Assembly (NCBI RefSeq): GCF_017432245.1
Contig: NZ_JAFRJO010000004.1
Location: forward strand, 25,072-57,071
Direction: 5' to 3'
DNA from: Methanobrevibacter sp.
Lineage (GTDB): Archaea > Methanobacteriota > Methanobacteria > Methanobacteriales > Methanobacteriaceae
Length of the DNA: 32,000 bases
In this document: in pieces, positions 4,033 to 30,407 of the stretch
Numbering within the stretch: position 1 is the stretch's first letter
Layout: each line of letters starts with the position of its first letter
Translations under genes and position numbers: made by a program
Notes under the pieces: generated by a model
Told to the model about the DNA's origin: nothing
What the model saw: the letters and a program-made list of their open reading frames with translations, nothing else
Databases searched by the model: none

Positions 4033-5604
4033 GTGAATATGGGAGAAGCAACTGGGAGTTCTAAAGTAGCTAAGGGAAGCGCTATTATCTTAATAGGAAA
4101 TGTCATCTTCCGTGTAGGGGGATATCTTTACCGTTTCCTTATGGCATCACTTTTAGGACCGGCAGCATATGGTATACTTGGACTCACAACTCCATTTCAA
4201 GGAATATTCCAAGTTTTATCTGCAGCAGGGCTTCCACCGGCAATAGCTAAATACGTATCAGAGTACAATGCCCTTGATGAAGAGGATCTTGCTCGCCAAA
4301 CAGTTTTCACAGCACTGAAGATAATGGTCTTTTTAGGATTCTTCTTTGGACTGATTATGGTATTTGTAGCTGCACCTATCATTACAAACTATTATCACAA
4401 GCCAGAGGCATTGTTGCCGCTTCAGGCTGTTGGTTTAATCACTCCTTTCAGTGTGATAGTCGGTGCATTTAGAGGTGCTTTCCAAGGTGTATACAAAATG
4501 GAATACATCCTTTATACACGTGCAATTGAACAGATATTCATGATTCTATTTGCAACTGCACTTGTAATTTTAGGATTATCCACCTTTGGTGCAGTATTAG
4601 GTTCTGTACTCGGTTTTGCAGCATCAGCAGTGTCTGCAGTCTATATCTTTAAAAGGTATATGGGAAAATATATCCCCCCTGCAAATCCTGACTTTAAGTT
4701 TACCTTCAGACAGGAATTGGGCCTTGCAAAAAGATTGCTTTTCTTTTCAATTCCAGTTACAGTCACTGCACTTGCTGAAATGGGTATTTACAGCATTTGT
4801 ACCTTGATTATGGGAGGATTCTTAGCTGCAAGCGCAATCGGTTACTTTACAGCAGCAGATCCTATTTCACGACTTCCTTTAATAGTCTCAAGTTCACTTG
4901 CAACTACCATATTGCCTGCAGCGTCTGAAGCATATGCTCTAAAGGATCAAAACCTACTTGAAAAATATGTCAATGCATCATATAAATACGGAATGTTCTT
5001 TGTAATTCCAATGTGTGTAGGAATAGCTATTTTTGCAAAGGAAATCATGGGGCTTGTATACTTTACAAATTCAGCTTACATGAACGGTGCAATGTCTCTT
5101 GCAATTCTTGTAATCGGTATGACATTCTATTCAATATATACAATTTCAGGAAGTATTGTCCAAGGTATTGGAAATCCAAGAATACCAATGTACCTTTTGA
5201 TATTCGGATGTATCATCACTTTAGGCCTCGGTTGGTACTTGATTCCTACTTACGGCATTGAAGGTGGAGCATTAGCTACTACAATAGCTTCATTCATAAT
5301 GATGATACCTATGTTCCTGCTCCAATTCAAGTTAACTAAAACCCATGCCCCTTATGCATTCTTAACTAAAGTCACAATAGCTTCATTGATTATGGCCTTG
5401 CCTGTATTTGTGCTTCCAAACAATAGCTATGGATTGATTGCAGGACTGATAATCTGTCCAATAATCTATATGATTGCAATTGTAGCACTTAGAACATTAT
5501 CCCATGATGATGTGGCAGGATTTAGAAAATTCACCAGAAAATTAGGTCCTTTAAGAAAATATGCCAATAAGCTATTGGATATTATAGATAAATACAGTTC
5601 TTAA
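4033..5604 (+). CDS. MOP-superfamily polysaccharide/oligosaccharide flippase (Wzx/MurJ-like polysaccharide biosynthesis protein)
   Basis: 523 aa, about 14 predicted TM helices, with an N-terminal SAIILIGNVIFRVGGYLYRFLMASLLGPAAYG pattern typical of the family. The track start is GTG 4033; ATG 4039 with GGTG 5 nt upstream is the likelier start. Confidence 0.75.
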   Translation: MNMGEATGSSKVAKGSAIILIGNVIFRVGGYLYRFLMASLLGPAAYGILGLTTPFQGIFQVLSAAGLPPAIAKYVSEYNALDEEDLARQTVFTALKIMVFLGFFFGLIMVFVAAPIITNYYHKPEALLPLQAVGLITPFSVIVGAFRGAFQGVYKMEYILYTRAIEQIFMILFATALVILGLSTFGAVLGSVLGFAASAVSAVYIFKRYMGKYIPPANPDFKFTFRQELGLAKRLLFFSIPVTVTALAEMGIYSICTLIMGGFLAASAIGYFTAADPISRLPLIVSSSLATTILPAASEAYALKDQNLLEKYVNASYKYGMFFVIPMCVGIAIFAKEIMGLVYFTNSAYMNGAMSLAILVIGMTFYSIYTISGSIVQGIGNPRIPMYLLIFGCIITLGLGWYLIPTYGIEGGALATTIASFIMMIPMFLLQFKLTKTHAPYAFLTKVTIASLIMALPVFVLPNNSYGLIAGLIICPIIYMIAIVALRTLSHDDVAGFRKFTRKLGPLRKYANKLLDIIDKYSS

Positions 5605-5964
5605 AAAATCAATAAATTTTTATCTTTACTTTTTTTATTTACTTTAATCTTACTTTTTTTAACTCTAGCTTAGTTTTTTTTGGGTCGAATTAAACATTCA
5701 TTCTATTTTTCAAATTCATATCGATTTTTTAAAAGAATCACTTATAAAGGAATTATCGATTACGAATATTCATCATAACGAGTCAAAACTAAATATCCTT
5801 TCTTTTATATCTTAAAACATCTTATAACCAAAAATAATTTTTGAAATAATTAGCGAATATAATTAGATTAAAATAAATAAGTTTAATTAATAAAAGGCAT
5901 ATATTAAATATCAATCTGAGTAATTTTTGAAAAATATTTTTTTAAGGTAAAAGGGACGATTAAT

Positions 5965-6657
5965 ATGACTGAGGTAAAAGCTGGAGTAGAATATAAGATT
6001 AATATAGATGGAAATTCTTTTCTATTGGATCAAAAGAAATTCAATCTGTTGATTTATATAAATGAAAGCGAATCAATTACAGAAGCTGCTAAGCGTTCAA
6101 AAATTTCATACAGAACTGCTTTAAACTATATCGATAAAATAGAGTCAAGCTTGGATATAGCTATTGTAAGCACTAAAAAAGGAGGAAGCGGTGGTGGAGG
6201 CAGTACCACTCTTACCGAAGAGGGCTTGCAGATTCTAAAGGAATGTAAAAAGATCAATGCAATCATGGAACTTCATAGCGAAACAAATGAGATTGAAGCT
6301 GAAATTCTTGAAGTTGACAAGTCAAAAGGTGTCATGAAAATTCAAATGAATGAGTTGGTCATAACTATTCCACTTAAAAAGGAATATAAAGTTGGAGATA
6401 AGATTCTCGCTTTAATAAGCTATGACAATATATTCATAATGTTGGAGCCTCAAGCATCCAGTATTAGAAACATCTTCAAGGGAAAAGTCACTGAAATGAG
6501 ACTTAAGGATGAAATGATCCGTGTAAAAATTGACATTGATGGAGTGGACATTTTCTCAGACATTACCTTATCTGCAGGTAAGGACTTGGATTTAAGTTTA
6601 GGAAAAGAGGTTTACATTGGATTTAAGGCATTGTCAATAGCTACATTAAAATTATAG
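5965..6657 (+). CDS. ModE-like molybdate-responsive transcriptional regulator (N-terminal wHTH plus C-terminal TOBE/Mop domains)
   Basis: ISYRTALNYIDKIE...VSTKKGGSGGGGSTTLTEEGLQIL parallels E. coli ModE ISYKSAWDAINEMN...ATGGKGGGGAVLTRYGQRL. The C-terminus SSIRNIFKGKVTEM...VKIDIDG...ITLSAGKDLDLSLGKEVYIGFKA is TOBE-like. Confidence 0.8.
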   Translation: MTEVKAGVEYKINIDGNSFLLDQKKFNLLIYINESESITEAAKRSKISYRTALNYIDKIESSLDIAIVSTKKGGSGGGGSTTLTEEGLQILKECKKINAIMELHSETNEIEAEILEVDKSKGVMKIQMNELVITIPLKKEYKVGDKILALISYDNIFIMLEPQASSIRNIFKGKVTEMRLKDEMIRVKIDIDGVDIFSDITLSAGKDLDLSLGKEVYIGFKALSIATLKL

Positions 6658-9736: not shown

Positions 9737-9812
9737 TCTAAAACCTTTCCTATCAATTAAAAAAATAGTATTCCTCTAAAACCTTTCCTATCAATTAAAA
9801 AAAATAGTTTCC
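9737..9812. repeat. Tandem 38-bp duplication of the leader immediately upstream of the 9095..9736 gene
   Basis: 9737-9774 (TCTAAAACCTTTCCTATCAATTAAAAAAATAGTATTCC) and 9775-9812 (TCTAAAACCTTTCCTATCAATTAAAAAAAATAGTTTCC) are head-to-tail, differing only in A-run length and one indel. Copy 1 abuts the start codon. Confidence 0.8.
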
Positions 9813-24205: not shown

Positions 24206-25507
24206 ATGCAATATAGAATTGATTTAACTAACGATGAAGTACCAACCAAATGGTATAATATTAACGCTGATTTACCTGTAGAACTTCCTGCTCCTAAAAA
24301 CAGTGAAGGAAAAGATCAAATAGGCACATTGCCTCAAATATTCGTAAACGAATGTCTTAATCAAGAGTTCGCTACTGACAGATACATAAGTATCCCAAAA
24401 GAGGTAAGAGAACTCTACCAAAGATTAGGAAGACCTACTCCTTTAGTTAGAGCAAAAGGACTTGAAGAAAAACTTAATACGCCTGCAAAAATCTATTATA
24501 AGCGGGAAGACACTTCTCCTACTGGAAGTCACAAGCTAAACAGTGCAATAGCTCAGGCATACTATGCTAAAAAGGAAGGTATTGAAAGAATTACCACAGA
24601 AACCGGTGCAGGGCAATGGGGTACTGCTTTATCCCTTGCAGCTTCCATGATGGGAATCGATTGTACCGTATACATGGTAAGGGTTTCATATGACCAAAAG
24701 CCTTTCAGAAAAACTATCATGCAATTGTATGATGGAGAGGTTCATGCTTCCCCAAGTGAAAATACTGAAGTAGGAAGGAAAGTTCTTGCAGAACATCCAG
24801 ACACTCCAGGTTCCCTTGGAATAGCTATTTCTGAAGCTGTAGAAGATGCTTTAACTGATGATAAAGTAAAATACACCTTAGGAAGTGTATTGAACCACGT
24901 TATCTTGCATCAAACCACAATTGGTCAAGAAATCAAGATTCAATTGGAAAAAGTTGAAGAAGAGCCAGACACAATGATTGCTTGTGTTGGTGGAGGAAGT
25001 AACTTTGGAGGATCCTTGTTCCCATTCATTAAAGACAAGATTCAAGGTAACACCGACACTGAATTCATAGCTGTAGAACCTTCTGCATGCCCTACATTGA
25101 CTCAAGGAGAATACAGATACGACTTTGGTGATGAAGTGGGATTCACTCCTCTCTTGAAGATGTTTACATTAGGACACAACTTCGTTGCTCCTTCTGTACA
25201 TGCAGGTGGACTTAGATACCACGGTATGAACACACAAGTGTCCTTGCTTAGAGACTTAGGCTACATCAATCCAGTTGCTGTTCACCAAAGAGATGTATTT
25301 GCAGCAGGTAAAATGTTTGCATTGTGTGAAGGAGTCATTCCAGCACCTGAAACAAACCATGCAATCAAGGCAGCTATTGATGAAGCTAAAAAATGTAAGG
25401 AAACTGGTGAAGAAAAAACCATTGTTGTTAACTTCTCAGGCCATGGTTTAATGGACTTTAAAGGTTACGCAAGTTATATGGATGGATCTATGGAAAACTC
25501 CAAATAG
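24206..25507 (+). CDS. trpB2: TrpB2-type tryptophan synthase beta-subunit-like PLP enzyme
   Basis: 433 aa with the long TrpB2 N-terminal extension. The PLP-lysine motif is EDTSPTGSHKLNSAIAQAYYAKKEG, followed by GGGSNFGG and then GLRYHG. No other trp genes are adjacent. Confidence 0.9.
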   Translation: MQYRIDLTNDEVPTKWYNINADLPVELPAPKNSEGKDQIGTLPQIFVNECLNQEFATDRYISIPKEVRELYQRLGRPTPLVRAKGLEEKLNTPAKIYYKREDTSPTGSHKLNSAIAQAYYAKKEGIERITTETGAGQWGTALSLAASMMGIDCTVYMVRVSYDQKPFRKTIMQLYDGEVHASPSENTEVGRKVLAEHPDTPGSLGIAISEAVEDALTDDKVKYTLGSVLNHVILHQTTIGQEIKIQLEKVEEEPDTMIACVGGGSNFGGSLFPFIKDKIQGNTDTEFIAVEPSACPTLTQGEYRYDFGDEVGFTPLLKMFTLGHNFVAPSVHAGGLRYHGMNTQVSLLRDLGYINPVAVHQRDVFAAGKMFALCEGVIPAPETNHAIKAAIDEAKKCKETGEEKTIVVNFSGHGLMDFKGYASYMDGSMENSK

Positions 25508-25542
25508 ATTTCCATTCTATTATTTTTTTTTATGATAATTTT

Positions 25543-25783
25543 TAGTTATAAGTTATAAGTTATAACTAATAACTTATAAAATATAAGAAATAACTTAAAA
25601 ATAAAAACTTATAAATGATAAATTATAAAGTAAAAGTAATAAGATATAACTTAAAACTTATATAGTATAACTTATAAATTATAATATATAAGTAATAACT
25701 AGGAAGTAATAACTTACAAATAATAACAAATAAGTTTTAAGAAAAAACTTCTAAGTTATTCCAAGTTATTCATTATAAGTTAT
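25543..25783. repeat. Iteron array of AAGTTAT / ATAACTT (candidate centromere-like site/operator upstream of parA)
   Basis: Perfect AAGTTAT at 25550, 25557, 25753, 25763 and 25777. Perfect ATACTT-orientation copies (ATAACTT) at 25569, 25590, 25646, 25667 and 25709. At least 5 one-mismatch copies, e.g. 25543, 25604, 25653, 25695, 25731. Orientation runs F-F-F, then R x5-8, then F-F-F. The last copy overlaps a TATA-like TTATAAAA about 55 bp before the parA ATG. Confidence 0.8.
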
Positions 25784-25837
25784 AAAATTTAAGAAATCAC
25801 TTTATTTTAAGAAAAAATACTAAGGAGAATTAATATA

Positions 25838-26611
25838 ATGGGAGAAACTATTGCCGTAATGAATCAAAAAGGCGGATGTGGGAAGACTACAACTGTAGTT
25901 AATTTGGCAACATCACTTGCAGCTATGGGAAAGGCCGTCCTTGTAGTCGATATGGATCCGCAAGCTAACGCTACAACAAGTTTTGGAATTAATAAAACAG
26001 AAATCAAGAAGACAGTATACACTGCTTTAGTAAACGAATGCAGTGTTCAAAAAGCTACAATTCCAACAAAAATTGAAAACCTATTCATACTTCCAAGCAA
26101 TATCGACTTAAGCGGTATTGAAGTGGAATTAAGCAAGGAAGCTAACTATCATATAGCTTTAAAGAACTTGCTTGAACCTATTAAAGGCATCTTTGATTAC
26201 ATTATAATAGACTTGCCACCATCTCTTGGAATAATAACAATAAATTCACTAATAGCTGCAGACAGCGTATTGATACCGATTCAAGCTGAATATTTTGCAC
26301 TTGAAGGATTGGCCGACCTGATGAATACAATCAAACTTGTGGAAACAAGATTAAGAAGCCCGACACCAATCAAGGGAATACTTCTAACATTGTATGATGC
26401 AAGAACCAGATTAGGAAGGGAAGTCTATTCCGAGCTAAAAAAATACTTCAAGGACAAGGAATACGTATTCAATACAGTCATTCCAAGAAACATACGTTTG
26501 GCAGAAGCTCCAAGTTATGGAAAACCATGTATTGTCTATGATCCAGAAAGCAAAGGTGCAATAGCTTACTTGAAACTTGCTAAGGAAATATTGGAAAGGG
26601 ATGGAAACTGA
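25838..26611 (+). CDS. parA: ParA/Soj-family partition ATPase (deviant Walker A)
   Basis: IAVMNQKGGCGKTTTVVNLA (KGGxGKT with signature Lys), VLVVDMDPQANAT, IIIDLPPSLG, and LPSNIDLSGIEVEL. 257 aa with no N-terminal HTH. AAGGAGA RBS. Confidence 0.9.
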   Translation: MGETIAVMNQKGGCGKTTTVVNLATSLAAMGKAVLVVDMDPQANATTSFGINKTEIKKTVYTALVNECSVQKATIPTKIENLFILPSNIDLSGIEVELSKEANYHIALKNLLEPIKGIFDYIIIDLPPSLGIITINSLIAADSVLIPIQAEYFALEGLADLMNTIKLVETRLRSPTPIKGILLTLYDARTRLGREVYSELKKYFKDKEYVFNTVIPRNIRLAEAPSYGKPCIVYDPESKGAIAYLKLAKEILERDGN

Positions 26612-26688
26612 AAAATAAAAAATAGAAAGAGAAAGAGAGTTATTGAATTAAAATAGGAATATGATACTTGATGATTACAATAATGATT

Positions 26689-26696
26689 TTTATATA
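26689..26696 (+). promoter_or_regulatory. Consensus archaeal TATA box positioned for a leaderless or near-leaderless transcript of the 26717 gene
   Basis: TTTATATA at 26689-26696. Its centre is about 25 bp upstream of the ATG at 26717, the usual TATA-to-TSS distance in archaea. Confidence 0.35.
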
Positions 26697-26716
26697 ACAC
26701 GAAAGGGTTTGATGAA

Positions 26717-27361
26717 ATGGCTAAAAAGGAAAAGAATACAGGATTAGGAAGAGGATTGGATTCATTGATTCCAAAAATAGAAGAGAAAGATTTTGAAGAA
26801 GGCATCAGTCTTGAGGATATGTTAAGGGAATCCGAAGAGGAATCAAAAACATTTGAAGAACTGGTTGAAGAAGTTGAAGAGGAATTCGATGGTGAAGATG
26901 AACTTCAAGTTTTAGAAAAATCAGCAGATGTTGAAGAGGAAAAAGTAGAAGAAAGTTCAGAGTACACAAATGTTTTCTTCAATGATGATGAGAAACCACC
27001 AGAAAATGGTGCAAAAGATGAAGAAAAAATCAGCTCAGAAAAAAGTGTAGAAATAATTGATTCTACAGTTAATTTAAATGAAGAAAGTGATGCAACTAGT
27101 GAAATAATTAAAGCTTCAGATGATTTAAAAGAAGTTGGTAGTCTTCTTTCAGAAAAAGAGGAGAAACTGATAGATGAAGTCATCGAAACTGTGGAAAATA
27201 ATCCAAGAATCACTTTATGGTCTGCAAGATCAGCGGCTGTACTAAGGTACTTGAGAAAAACCGAACCTGAATTCAGCATAAGCAGTGAAGCATCAAACTT
27301 GATAGATGCTGCAATAGCTGAAAAGTATCCTGAAATCTGGACATTGTTTAATCATTTGTAA
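26717..27361 (+). CDS. Acidic protein with ParB-like N-terminal peptide and C-terminal ribbon-helix-helix-like module (candidate ParA partner; not a canonical ParB)
   Basis: aa 1-20 are MAKKEKNTGLGRGLDSLIPK, matching the conserved ParB/Spo0J N-terminal GLGRGL(D/E/S)ALL ParA-interaction motif. aa ~21-160 are very acidic low-complexity sequence with no ParB/Srx GERRxRA box and no HTH. aa 161-207 are NNPRITLWSARSAAVLRYLRKTEPEFSISSEASNLIDAAIAEKY, a beta-helix-turn-helix pattern like ParG/omega/CopG. Confidence 0.75.
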   Translation: MAKKEKNTGLGRGLDSLIPKIEEKDFEEGISLEDMLRESEEESKTFEELVEEVEEEFDGEDELQVLEKSADVEEEKVEESSEYTNVFFNDDEKPPENGAKDEEKISSEKSVEIIDSTVNLNEESDATSEIIKASDDLKEVGSLLSEKEEKLIDEVIETVENNPRITLWSARSAAVLRYLRKTEPEFSISSEASNLIDAAIAEKYPEIWTLFNHL

Positions 27362-27534
27362 GATACTTACATGATTTAGAATTATGATTATCCACTTAAC
27401 ATCAATAAATCAAAGGATTGGTAGATGATTGGAATCTGTTTTTAAATGGATTCCTTTATCTATCAATTAAGAAGATTAACAAATTTTATATTAATTTAAA
27501 AATAGCTAACTAAAATTAAAACACGGGGATTAAA

Positions 27535-30201: not shown

Positions 30202-30407
30202 GTATAACTACTTATTCTAACTTATATCCTAACTTAATCCTAACTTATATCCTAACTAATAGTTTATATAACTTGAAAAATATAATTATATTATTATATA
30301 AAAAAATCATTATCAAAATTTATTGAAATATTTGATATAATATGATTTGATTATCAAAGATTACTTAATCATAATTACAATGTTTTAAAATAAAGTAAGG
30401 TGTTTTA

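Follow-up and report, generated by a model that had tools for sequence, protein, structure and literature searches.

Introduction

To our knowledge, chromosome segregation in archaea outside the Sulfolobales is essentially unstudied. The SegAB system pairs a ParA-like adenosine triphosphatase (ATPase), SegA, with SegB, a ribbon-helix-helix (RHH) centromere-binding protein whose disordered N-terminus stimulates SegA (PMC8682754). In Saccharolobus solfataricus (Sso), the N-terminal 21 residues of SegB are needed for this stimulation, and two SegB dimers occupy each S1 site, with neighbours touching via P72 in a left-handed superhelix (PMC8682754). The Sso motif found in vivo, TCTAGA-S-TCTAGA, consists of two 6-bp palindromes whose centres lie 7 bp apart around a central G/C (PMC12284271). 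Both the system and its presence in Methanobacteriales have already been described, and euryarchaeal SegB homologs, including those of Methanobacteriales and Methanosphaera, have been listed (PMC5120986, PMC12284271, PMC12139799). SegB sites near the segAB genes of a euryarchaeon were not found with the Sulfolobus motif (PMC12284271), and the spread of SegAB in Euryarchaea and possible "variations on the SegAB theme" were raised as open questions (PMC5120986). Here we analyze a locus in a 32,000-nt stretch of Methanobrevibacter sp. (contig NZ_JAFRJO010000004.1 of assembly GCF_017432245.1, positions 25,072-57,071, forward strand), hereafter the window, and propose that it is probably a chromosomal SegAB partition operon of a euryarchaeal form, belonging to the Methanobrevibacter olleyae/ruminantium group and working through an array of 7-bp repeats (heptads) upstream of its genes.

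Another RHH protein, omega of the plasmid pSM19035 delta/omega system, binds as one dimer per 7-bp heptad in either orientation and forms a left-handed spiral on arrays that overlap promoters (PMC9499535). At least 4 contiguous heptads are needed by omega for full ParA activation (PMC9499535).

Identification of the Adaptor Protein as SegB

The second gene of the operon encodes a 214-aa protein for which a Pfam/NCBIfam scan returned nothing usable: no ParB/Srx or helix-turn-helix (HTH) match was obtained at E values up to 1, in agreement with the original prediction, and a ParM_N match at E 0.1 was spurious. Residues 121-211, however, matched SegB of S. solfataricus (7DUV and 7DV2; E 9e-9 and 1e-7 by phmmer against PDB sequences), with 31% identity to Sulfolobus SegB in the RHH domain. 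An AlphaFold2 (AF2) model of residues 135-214, built with 20 homologs, reached a predicted local distance difference test (pLDDT) score of 89.5; its order of elements, namely a helix, an extended NPRITLWS segment and three helices, is the alpha1-beta1-alpha2-alpha3-alpha4 order of Sso SegB (PMC8682754). When this model was compared with the PDB by Foldseek, the sole matches were the SegB-DNA chains 7DV2_A/C, with template modelling (TM) scores of 0.69-0.72 and a root-mean-square deviation (rmsd) of 2.4 Å. The published SegB signature, K/R-D/N-P-K/R-I-G/T-V/L-W-S (PMC12139799), was fitted by residues 161-169 (NNPRITLWS) at 8 of 9 positions, the first being N instead of K/R; the beta-strand N162-P-R-I-T-L-W-S169 is encoded at 27200-27223. 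Residues K52, W56, P72 and S77 of the Sso protein correspond to R164, W168, P184 and S189, and the base-contacting K75 is replaced by S187. Judged from the alignment, this replacement together with the kept proline is compatible with a changed hexamer specificity and a retained side-by-side packing.

Because of the sequence match, the fold match and the signature motif, the locus was identified as SegAB. The RHH fold that had been predicted for the C-terminal module is thus borne out, although the folded part comprises ~74 aa and not ~50 aa. The original prediction had further proposed that the locus is an archaeal segregation module not described before and without relation to SegAB, and had set SegAB apart as being built differently. 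Such a proposal would fit the lack of Pfam/NCBIfam matches and the public names of the protein, which are "hypothetical protein" or, wrongly, "AAA family ATPase"; but it is refuted by the homology in sequence and fold to crystallised SegB, by the presence of the published signature and by the Methanobacteriales SegB homologs already catalogued in PMC12139799. We therefore regard it as highly unlikely: the locus is itself a SegAB locus.

An exhaustive HMMER search with the C-terminal domain gathered a family of 196 clusters at 50% identity. In a scan of one genome per species, 227 loci were obtained, and synteny was counted in the best 80 of the 227, all of which came from Methanobrevibacter and close relatives (M. 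thaueri, M. millerae, M. intestini, M. filiformis, M. cuticularis, Ca. Methanorudis and Ca. Methanovirga). A ParA open reading frame (ORF) lay directly upstream of segB in ~75 of these 80 loci, usually abutting or overlapping it; the pairing of the 214-aa ORF with parA is hence kept among relatives. A gap separates the two genes in the clade of the window (Table 1); in Sulfolobus and in most other Methanobrevibacter loci they adjoin or overlap each other.

Public records of SegB homologs (P0083, P0117, P0320, P0306 and P0278) were misnamed or empty, and none was called SegB: NCBI calls several of them "AAA family ATPase", and JGI names some of them "sulfur relay DsrC/TusE family protein" or "histone H3/H4". 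The family also contains a tandem subfamily of 155-215-aa proteins with two SegB-like domains and no N-terminal peptide (P0172, P0181, P0184, P0192-P0194, P0212, P0213 and others), which could be single-chain pseudo-dimeric RHH proteins. At the single locus of this kind that was inspected (L207, gene at 1517-2026), no ParA neighbour was found, and a TTATAAAGTAA direct repeat was all that lay upstream of the gene.

The ParA ATPase and the ParB-Type Peptide

The first gene encodes a ParA with the Walker A motif KGGCGKTT and no extra N-terminal domain, as had been predicted of a deviant-Walker-A ParA without an N-terminal HTH (Pfam match in Table 1). Its resemblance to bacterial proteins was strong: 260 bits, 48% identity and 1.6e-76 against the ParA of PDB entry 8RAY, 222 bits and 7.5e-65 against Helicobacter pylori Soj, and 195 bits and 1e-56 against Thermus thermophilus Soj. 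Sso SegA (7DUT) scored 70 bits (2e-18, 35% identity over 162 residues). Entry 8RAY is cited in a study of Myxococcus xanthus ParA, in which L150, G151, L152 and L192 contact the ParB peptide (PMC12462528). These pocket residues are conserved in the ParA of the window, as L130, G131, I132 and L172; Sso SegA has L-G-T at the first pocket site. The ParAs encoded beside distant SegBs (L083 and L084) were 47-49% identical to the ParA of the window over their full length.

The 214-aa protein begins with MAKKEKNTGLGRGLDSLIPK, which the original prediction had likened to the ParA-stimulating N-terminal peptide of ParB/Spo0J. The best PDB match of the window peptide was T. thermophilus Spo0J residues 3-19 (E 1.1; EKNTGLGRGLDSLIPKI vs RKPSGLGRGLEALLPKT, with 12 of 17 positions identical). 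When 43 SegB N-peptides were combined into a profile and searched against 177,635 PDB sequences, Spo0J residues 1-18 ranked first (E 0.005) and Caulobacter crescentus ParB residues 1-19 second (E 0.1), both aligned end to end. At least 66 of the 150 family representatives carry the motif (K/R)-x-(G/A/R)-L-G-(R/K)-G-L-D-(S/A)-L-I, as does every related locus where a SegB ORF was found; many of the other representatives are fragments or near-variants. The SegBs of Sulfolobales start with MSELD(F/L)(L/I)L followed by lysines; the LDxLL half of the motif is kept there and LG(R/K)G is missing. The Soj resemblance, the conserved pocket and the full peptide together suggest, at the level of sequence, that canonical Soj pairs with a complete ParB-type peptide in this clade, and a divergent short SegA with a truncated motif in Sulfolobales. 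No earlier mention of a resemblance between the SegB and ParB peptides was found in the searchable literature, where SegB is described as having no identity to bacterial proteins.

Between the peptide and the RHH domain lies an acidic stretch, which had been put at ~140 aa and proved shorter (~119 aa, residues 22-140). In the AF2 model of full-length SegB, residues 14-17 form a short helix (pLDDT ~73) and residues 32-54 a helix of moderate confidence, 54-136 are disordered (pLDDT <50) and 140-214 are folded. Relatives have SegBs of between 139 and 331 aa, the difference being due to the variable acidic insert, in agreement with the expansion idea of PMC12139799. A further motif, S-L-E-D-x-L, occurs at residues 30-36 (ISLEDML, 26804-26824), ~10 residues past the N-peptide and at the start of the predicted helix 32-54; it is conserved in Methanobrevibacter, with L32 and D34 nearly invariant, and is absent from the SegBs of Methanobacterium and other clades.

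A Phased Heptad Array Upstream of parA

The spacer between the trpB2-like gene and parA (25508-25837, 330 bp) contains 10 perfect copies of the heptamer AAGTTAT/ATAACTT, five per orientation (AAGTTAT at 25550, 25557, 25753, 25763 and 25777; ATAACTT at 25569, 25590, 25646, 25667 and 25709), and 25 copies with one mismatch. The original prediction of at least 10 perfect and at least 5 near copies in a ~240-bp array was thereby supported. Perfect copies numbered 17 in the whole window, which corresponds to 30/kb in the spacer and 0.22/kb elsewhere. The dimer AASTTATAASTTAT, with at most one mismatch, occurred 13 times, always inside 25543-25759, against 0.19 expected. Tandem Repeats Finder (TRF) reported period 7 with 22 copies and period 14 with 13.9 copies, and the lag-7/14 autocorrelation score was 0.33 in the array compared with a mean of -0.015 (standard deviation 0.028) in the rest of the window. 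Among 746 equally AT-rich control windows, the maximum lag-7 score was 0.056.

All 31 heptads of the array share one register without any indel, with the consensus frequencies T.74 T.65 A.90 T.77 A.97 A.94 [C.39/G.32/A.26]. Position 7, at which 12 units have C, 10 have G, 8 have A and one has T, accounts for nearly all the G+C of the region. Because of this common register, the two apparent orientations of the heptamer are a choice of G or C at the one-base spacer between palindromic TTATAA hexamers. The array may equally be written as a run of overlapping 9-bp palindromes, ATAA-S-TTAT. We consider (TTATAA-S)n, by analogy with the sites of omega and Sulfolobus SegB, a candidate euryarchaeal SegB site.

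The array runs on into the junction with parA, where out-of-register AAGTTAT copies were found at 25763 and 25777, together with a TATA-like TTATAAAA and a Shine-Dalgarno-like AGGAG ~10 nt 5' of the ATG; TTTTAAGAAAAAA is duplicated, at 25735 and 25805. The promoter scan covered the sigma-70 type only, and the segAB promoter is placed here by presumption.

The Sulfolobus SegB motif TCTAGA-S-TCTAGA gave 6 three-mismatch matches in the 32 kb against 6.95 expected, none of them near segAB, and the bacterial parS consensus gave three 3-mismatch matches in the window, again none near segAB.

Heptad Arrays Beside Related segAB Loci

Of the related loci, 69 had enough upstream sequence to be scored, and in all 69 the strongest 7-bp-periodic stretch was immediately 5' of parA. 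These arrays span 150-640 bp (~20-90 heptads) and keep one register for up to 50 or more units, and the most frequent 7-mers in most of the 69 loci were TAACTTA, AAGTTAT and AACTTAT. The arrays of M. filiformis and M. cuticularis keep (T/A)TATAA with a spacer that is mostly A. In Methanobacterium sp. (L081/82), TTATAAG-TTATAAC-TTAAAAT-TTATAAG stands just 5' of the parA ribosome-binding site, and a larger array follows just after segB (3418-3540 in L081). Heptads also recur beside segAB on contigs of 42-49% GC. In L083 (46% GC), TTATAAG-tcaggag-TAATAAG-TTATAAG-TTAGAAG-tgcTAAG-TTATAAG lies at the parA start, where all 7 motif matches in 4.2 kb are found, and in L185 (49% GC) all 13 motif matches are at the parA start. 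Heptad clusters occur on both sides of the operon in L144, with the main array 3' of segB (1435-1493), and L164 has triple heptads every 45-55 bp over ~0.9 kb downstream of segB (1764-2643). An Archaeoglobaceae metagenome-assembled genome (MAG; L084) carries ATAACTT, ATAACTTATAACT and TAAGTTA just upstream of segAB. The Sulfolobus locus is without the heptad motif and carries a GAAGAGTCTAGAC site instead; no heptad motif was found at two distant ParA-SegB loci in viral contigs.

This distribution bears on how the array should be understood. One explanation, partly overlapping with a centromere role, is that the array is an operator for auto-repression of segAB by SegB, with the segregation sites elsewhere or dispersed. 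In all scored loci the array reaches up to or beyond the parA start and the presumed promoter; the RHH proteins omega and ParG also repress at promoter-overlapping repeats (PMC9499535), Sulfolobus SegB has 39-46 mostly intragenic chromosomal sites (PMC12284271), and S1/S2 may be regulatory (PMC5120986). However, 20-90 heptads far exceed the needs of an operator, the main arrays of Methanobacterium L081/82, L144 and L164 are downstream of segB and not at the promoter, and no other clusters were seen within the ~0.5 Mb examined. An operator of this kind is possible, if doubtful, as the whole explanation.

A neutral microsatellite, generated by slippage in an AT-rich spacer, would be consistent with array lengths that differ between species and with the uniform (TTATAAG)n beside unrelated genes in many metagenome contigs. 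Yet the units here are imperfect, with mixed G/C/A spacers, while one register is held for 31 or more of them; different genera and orders have the array at the same position and with the same core, and no comparable periodicity appeared in the AT-rich control windows. This origin was judged extremely unlikely.

It is also conceivable that the array binds a factor other than SegB or has a different function, such as an origin or DNA-unwinding element, decoys for the TATA-binding protein (TBP) or loading of nucleoid proteins, and is merely co-located with segAB. TTATAA is similar to a TATA box, the DNA here melts easily and is extremely AT-rich, and an origin lies beside segAB in Metallosphaera (oriC1; PMC12284271). 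In the Archaeoglobaceae MAG, cdc6/orc1 genes stand on either side of segAB (1-1236 and 4933-6225), which probably places this segAB near an origin; immediately downstream is a PIN/RHH toxin-antitoxin pair. In contrast, the 7-bp period is the spacing of RHH arrays and not the helical repeat. The motif accompanies segAB in different orders and even in GC-rich genomes, in which every copy at the locus is at the operon boundary; it is absent at the Sulfolobus locus, where SegB contacts bases through different residues, and it lies here in a 32-kb window without a cdc6/orc1 gene. We thus consider a role unconnected with SegB improbable.

Comparison with Known Partition Systems

The locus shares with Sulfolobus SegAB (7DUT, 7DUV and 7DV2) the order of its two genes, a homologous SegB RHH domain with the pairs K52/R164, W56/W168 and P72/P184, a flexible SegB N-tail ahead of a variable low-complexity insert, and an operon-adjacent cis site made of 6-bp palindromes 7 bp apart around G/C. 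It differs from that system in its ATPase, which is a full-length Soj/ParA of 257 aa, whereas Sso SegA has 220 aa and forms a non-sandwich dimer; in its N-tail (K-x-GLGRGLDSLIP vs MSELDFLLKKK in Sulfolobales); and in its cis site, which has ~31 units of (TTATAA-S)n, unlike the one or two 13-bp TCTAGA-S-TCTAGA palindromes of Sulfolobus. A segC-like neighbour, present in Sulfolobus SegAB, is missing here, and the host is a rod-shaped methanogen rather than a coccoid thermophile dividing by the endosomal sorting complex required for transport (ESCRT).

Like delta/omega (PMC9499535), the locus combines a small ParA, an RHH binder with a disordered tail and contiguous promoter-overlapping 7-bp heptads in both orientations. 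No sequence relation to omega was detectable, however, and the plasmid-borne omega sites have 7-10 repeats of a WATCACW heptad; delta belongs to a distinct ParA subtype, and the omega tail is not of the ParB LG(R/K)GL type, unlike that of SegB here. TP228 ParF/ParG is likewise similar in its RHH dimer, its flexible ATPase-stimulating N-tail and its operon-upstream repeats that are also autoregulatory, but it is a plasmid system with ParF of a distant ParA subgroup, another tail, other repeats and no sequence homology. Features of the type Ib (ParG/omega) class were found at the locus: an RHH binder, a disordered tail, and tandem short repeats overlapping the presumed operon promoter.

With bacterial ParABS (1VZ0, 6T1F and 8RAY; PMC12462528), the locus has in common the class of ATPase (48% identity), the ParB-peptide pocket and the N-terminal LG(R/K)GL-type motif. 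In contrast to ParB, SegB of the window lacks the ParB/Srx cytidine triphosphatase (CTPase) domain, the HTH and the C-terminal ParB dimerisation domain, and no parS is present; a clamp gated by cytidine triphosphate (CTP), or sliding, is therefore not expected. By analogy, peptide juxtaposition would come from dense binding to the array instead of from a CTP clamp, and this SegAB would likely work as a type Ib (omega/ParG) system does while using type Ia parts.

Proposed Mechanism and Its Weighing

The steps of the mechanism that we propose are all inferred by homology. SegB would dimerise via its C-terminal RHH domain, and the paired beta-strands (R164 and W168) would enter the major groove of the palindromic TTATAA hexamers. 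Because the hexamers recur every 7 bp, adjacent dimers would contact side by side and coat the ~220-bp array, touching via the conserved proline P184 of the alpha2-alpha3 loop. The coat may form a left-handed spiral, as omega does on 7-bp heptads and Sulfolobus SegB on TCTAGA half-sites. From this complex, up to ~60 flexible acidic linkers could present the N-terminal K-x-GLGRGLDSLIP peptides, and the usual ParA gradient/ratchet would move the marked region of the chromosome. Binding of SegB at the array probably also autoregulates segAB, because the array runs into the promoter region.

Several points weigh against this interpretation. The link between SegB and the heptads draws on co-occurrence and analogy. 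The N-peptide resembles ParB over a short stretch (E 0.005 by profile and 1.1 by single sequence), and the likeness could have arisen by convergence rather than common descent. No cdc6/orc1 gene was found anywhere in the 32-kb window, although proximity to an origin is typical of centromeres. The hexamer TTATAA is similar to an archaeal TATA box, which leaves operator and centromere roles inseparable here, and A+T makes up 80-90% of the region. No second array was found in the 32 kb and ~0.45 Mb of locus flanks examined, the extent over which the array appears unique. The SegB subclades L209/L210 are without the heptad motif nearby, and in a metagenome scan for TTATAAS x3, run without a control heptamer, 5 of the 120 matching contigs listed carry ParA or SegB; triple TTATAAS is therefore not diagnostic of segAB.

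The other contigs listed in that scan (within L087-L206) carry short uniform (TTATAAG)n runs of 3-14 units, which are intergenic and occur at 35-68% GC. The genes beside them look bacterial and include hisIE, an FGGY kinase, a Crp-type regulator, sulfite reductase and others.

Genomic Setting

The window has a G+C content of 32%, and its genes include Fae-Hps, Mtd, hisB, leuA, a gatA-like gene and cobyrinic acid synthase, which are methanogen housekeeping functions. The part from 24.2 to 31.7 kb showed 86-95% DNA identity to Methanobrevibacter MAGs, one of which is labelled M. olleyae. On the basis of this identity and of the housekeeping genes, the DNA of the segAB locus is assigned by its sequence to the chromosome of a Methanobrevibacter of the olleyae/ruminantium group; the position on a methanogen chromosome between trpB2 and housekeeping genes that was originally predicted is consistent with this and with the trpB2-like gene found upstream. 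Coordinates are given in Table 1.

Table 1. Features of the segAB locus and its surroundings (nucleotide positions in the window)
Feature	Position	Strand	Description
trpB2-like PALP enzyme gene	24206-25507		Upstream neighbour of the spacer
Phased heptad array	25546..25762	.	31 contiguous TTATAA-N units in one register; candidate SegB-binding centromere/operator (segS)
Array-to-gene junction	25763..25837	+	Presumed segAB promoter/5' untranslated region, overlapped by repeats (promoter by inference only)
segA/parA	25838..26611	+	257-aa Soj-type deviant-Walker-A ATPase; Pfam AAA_31 8e-66
parA-segB gap	26612-26716		105 bp
segB	26717..27361	+	214-aa predicted centromere-binding adaptor: N-peptide, acidic disordered linker, SegB RHH domain
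SegB residues 8-19	26738..26773	+	TGLGRGLDSLIP; ParB-type ParA-binding/ATPase-activating motif (by sequence)
SegB residues 22-140	26780..27136	+	Acidic low-complexity linker, ~119 aa, 39% D+E, pI 4.05
SegB residues 141-214	27137..27358	+	Predicted SegB-type RHH DNA-binding domain
Hairpin followed by T-run	27431..27454	+	3' of segB; possible operon end, low confidence

No Rfam family matched in the 25-28 kb part of the window. A TAACTTA cluster at 30203-30275 was weighed as a second SegB site but not accepted. The cluster consists of 4.2 copies of the 12-bp tandem repeat TATCCTAACTTA, lies between an old yellow enzyme (OYE)-like oxidoreductase gene and an amidase gene, and has the TAACTTA core in common with the heptad array. 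With anything from 1 to 4 copies in close relatives, it looks like a variable-number tandem repeat (VNTR) and not like a conserved site. A 38-bp direct repeat at 9737-9812 (2 copies, 94% match, TRF score 136) lies in a spacer beside a DUF6198 gene.

Implications

No report of a heptad-array centromere candidate or of a ParB-type peptide on SegB was found in the searchable literature, and both the cis site and the peptide in this SegB clade are possibly new. The candidate centromere, (TTATAA-S)n, is conserved across Methanobrevibacter of gut and rumen, Methanobacterium and an Archaeoglobaceae MAG. It comes with a predicted activation peptide of 12 defined residues, in which R12 is the predicted key residue, and with a canonical ParA as partner, the mechanism of whose bacterial homologs is understood. 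The public annotation of the segAB genes is wrong or empty.

Euryarchaeal SegAB could be a distinct, perhaps more ancestral form of the system, in which an archaeal RHH domain is joined to a Soj ATPase and a ParB peptide and acts on a centromere that resembles that of omega and is made of tens of phased TTATAA-S heptads, a proposal for and against which we find the case evenly balanced. If the interpretation is true, the array would be the SegB site that was missed near the segAB genes of a euryarchaeon when the Sulfolobus motif was used, and the direction of transfer from Sulfolobaceae to Euryarchaeota proposed in PMC12139799 would be called into question. CTP-gated ParB clamps would not be needed to present the ParB peptide, since a dense RHH array may serve instead, and the ParA-activating peptide would be a portable module that has been exchanged between unrelated centromere-binding folds across domains.

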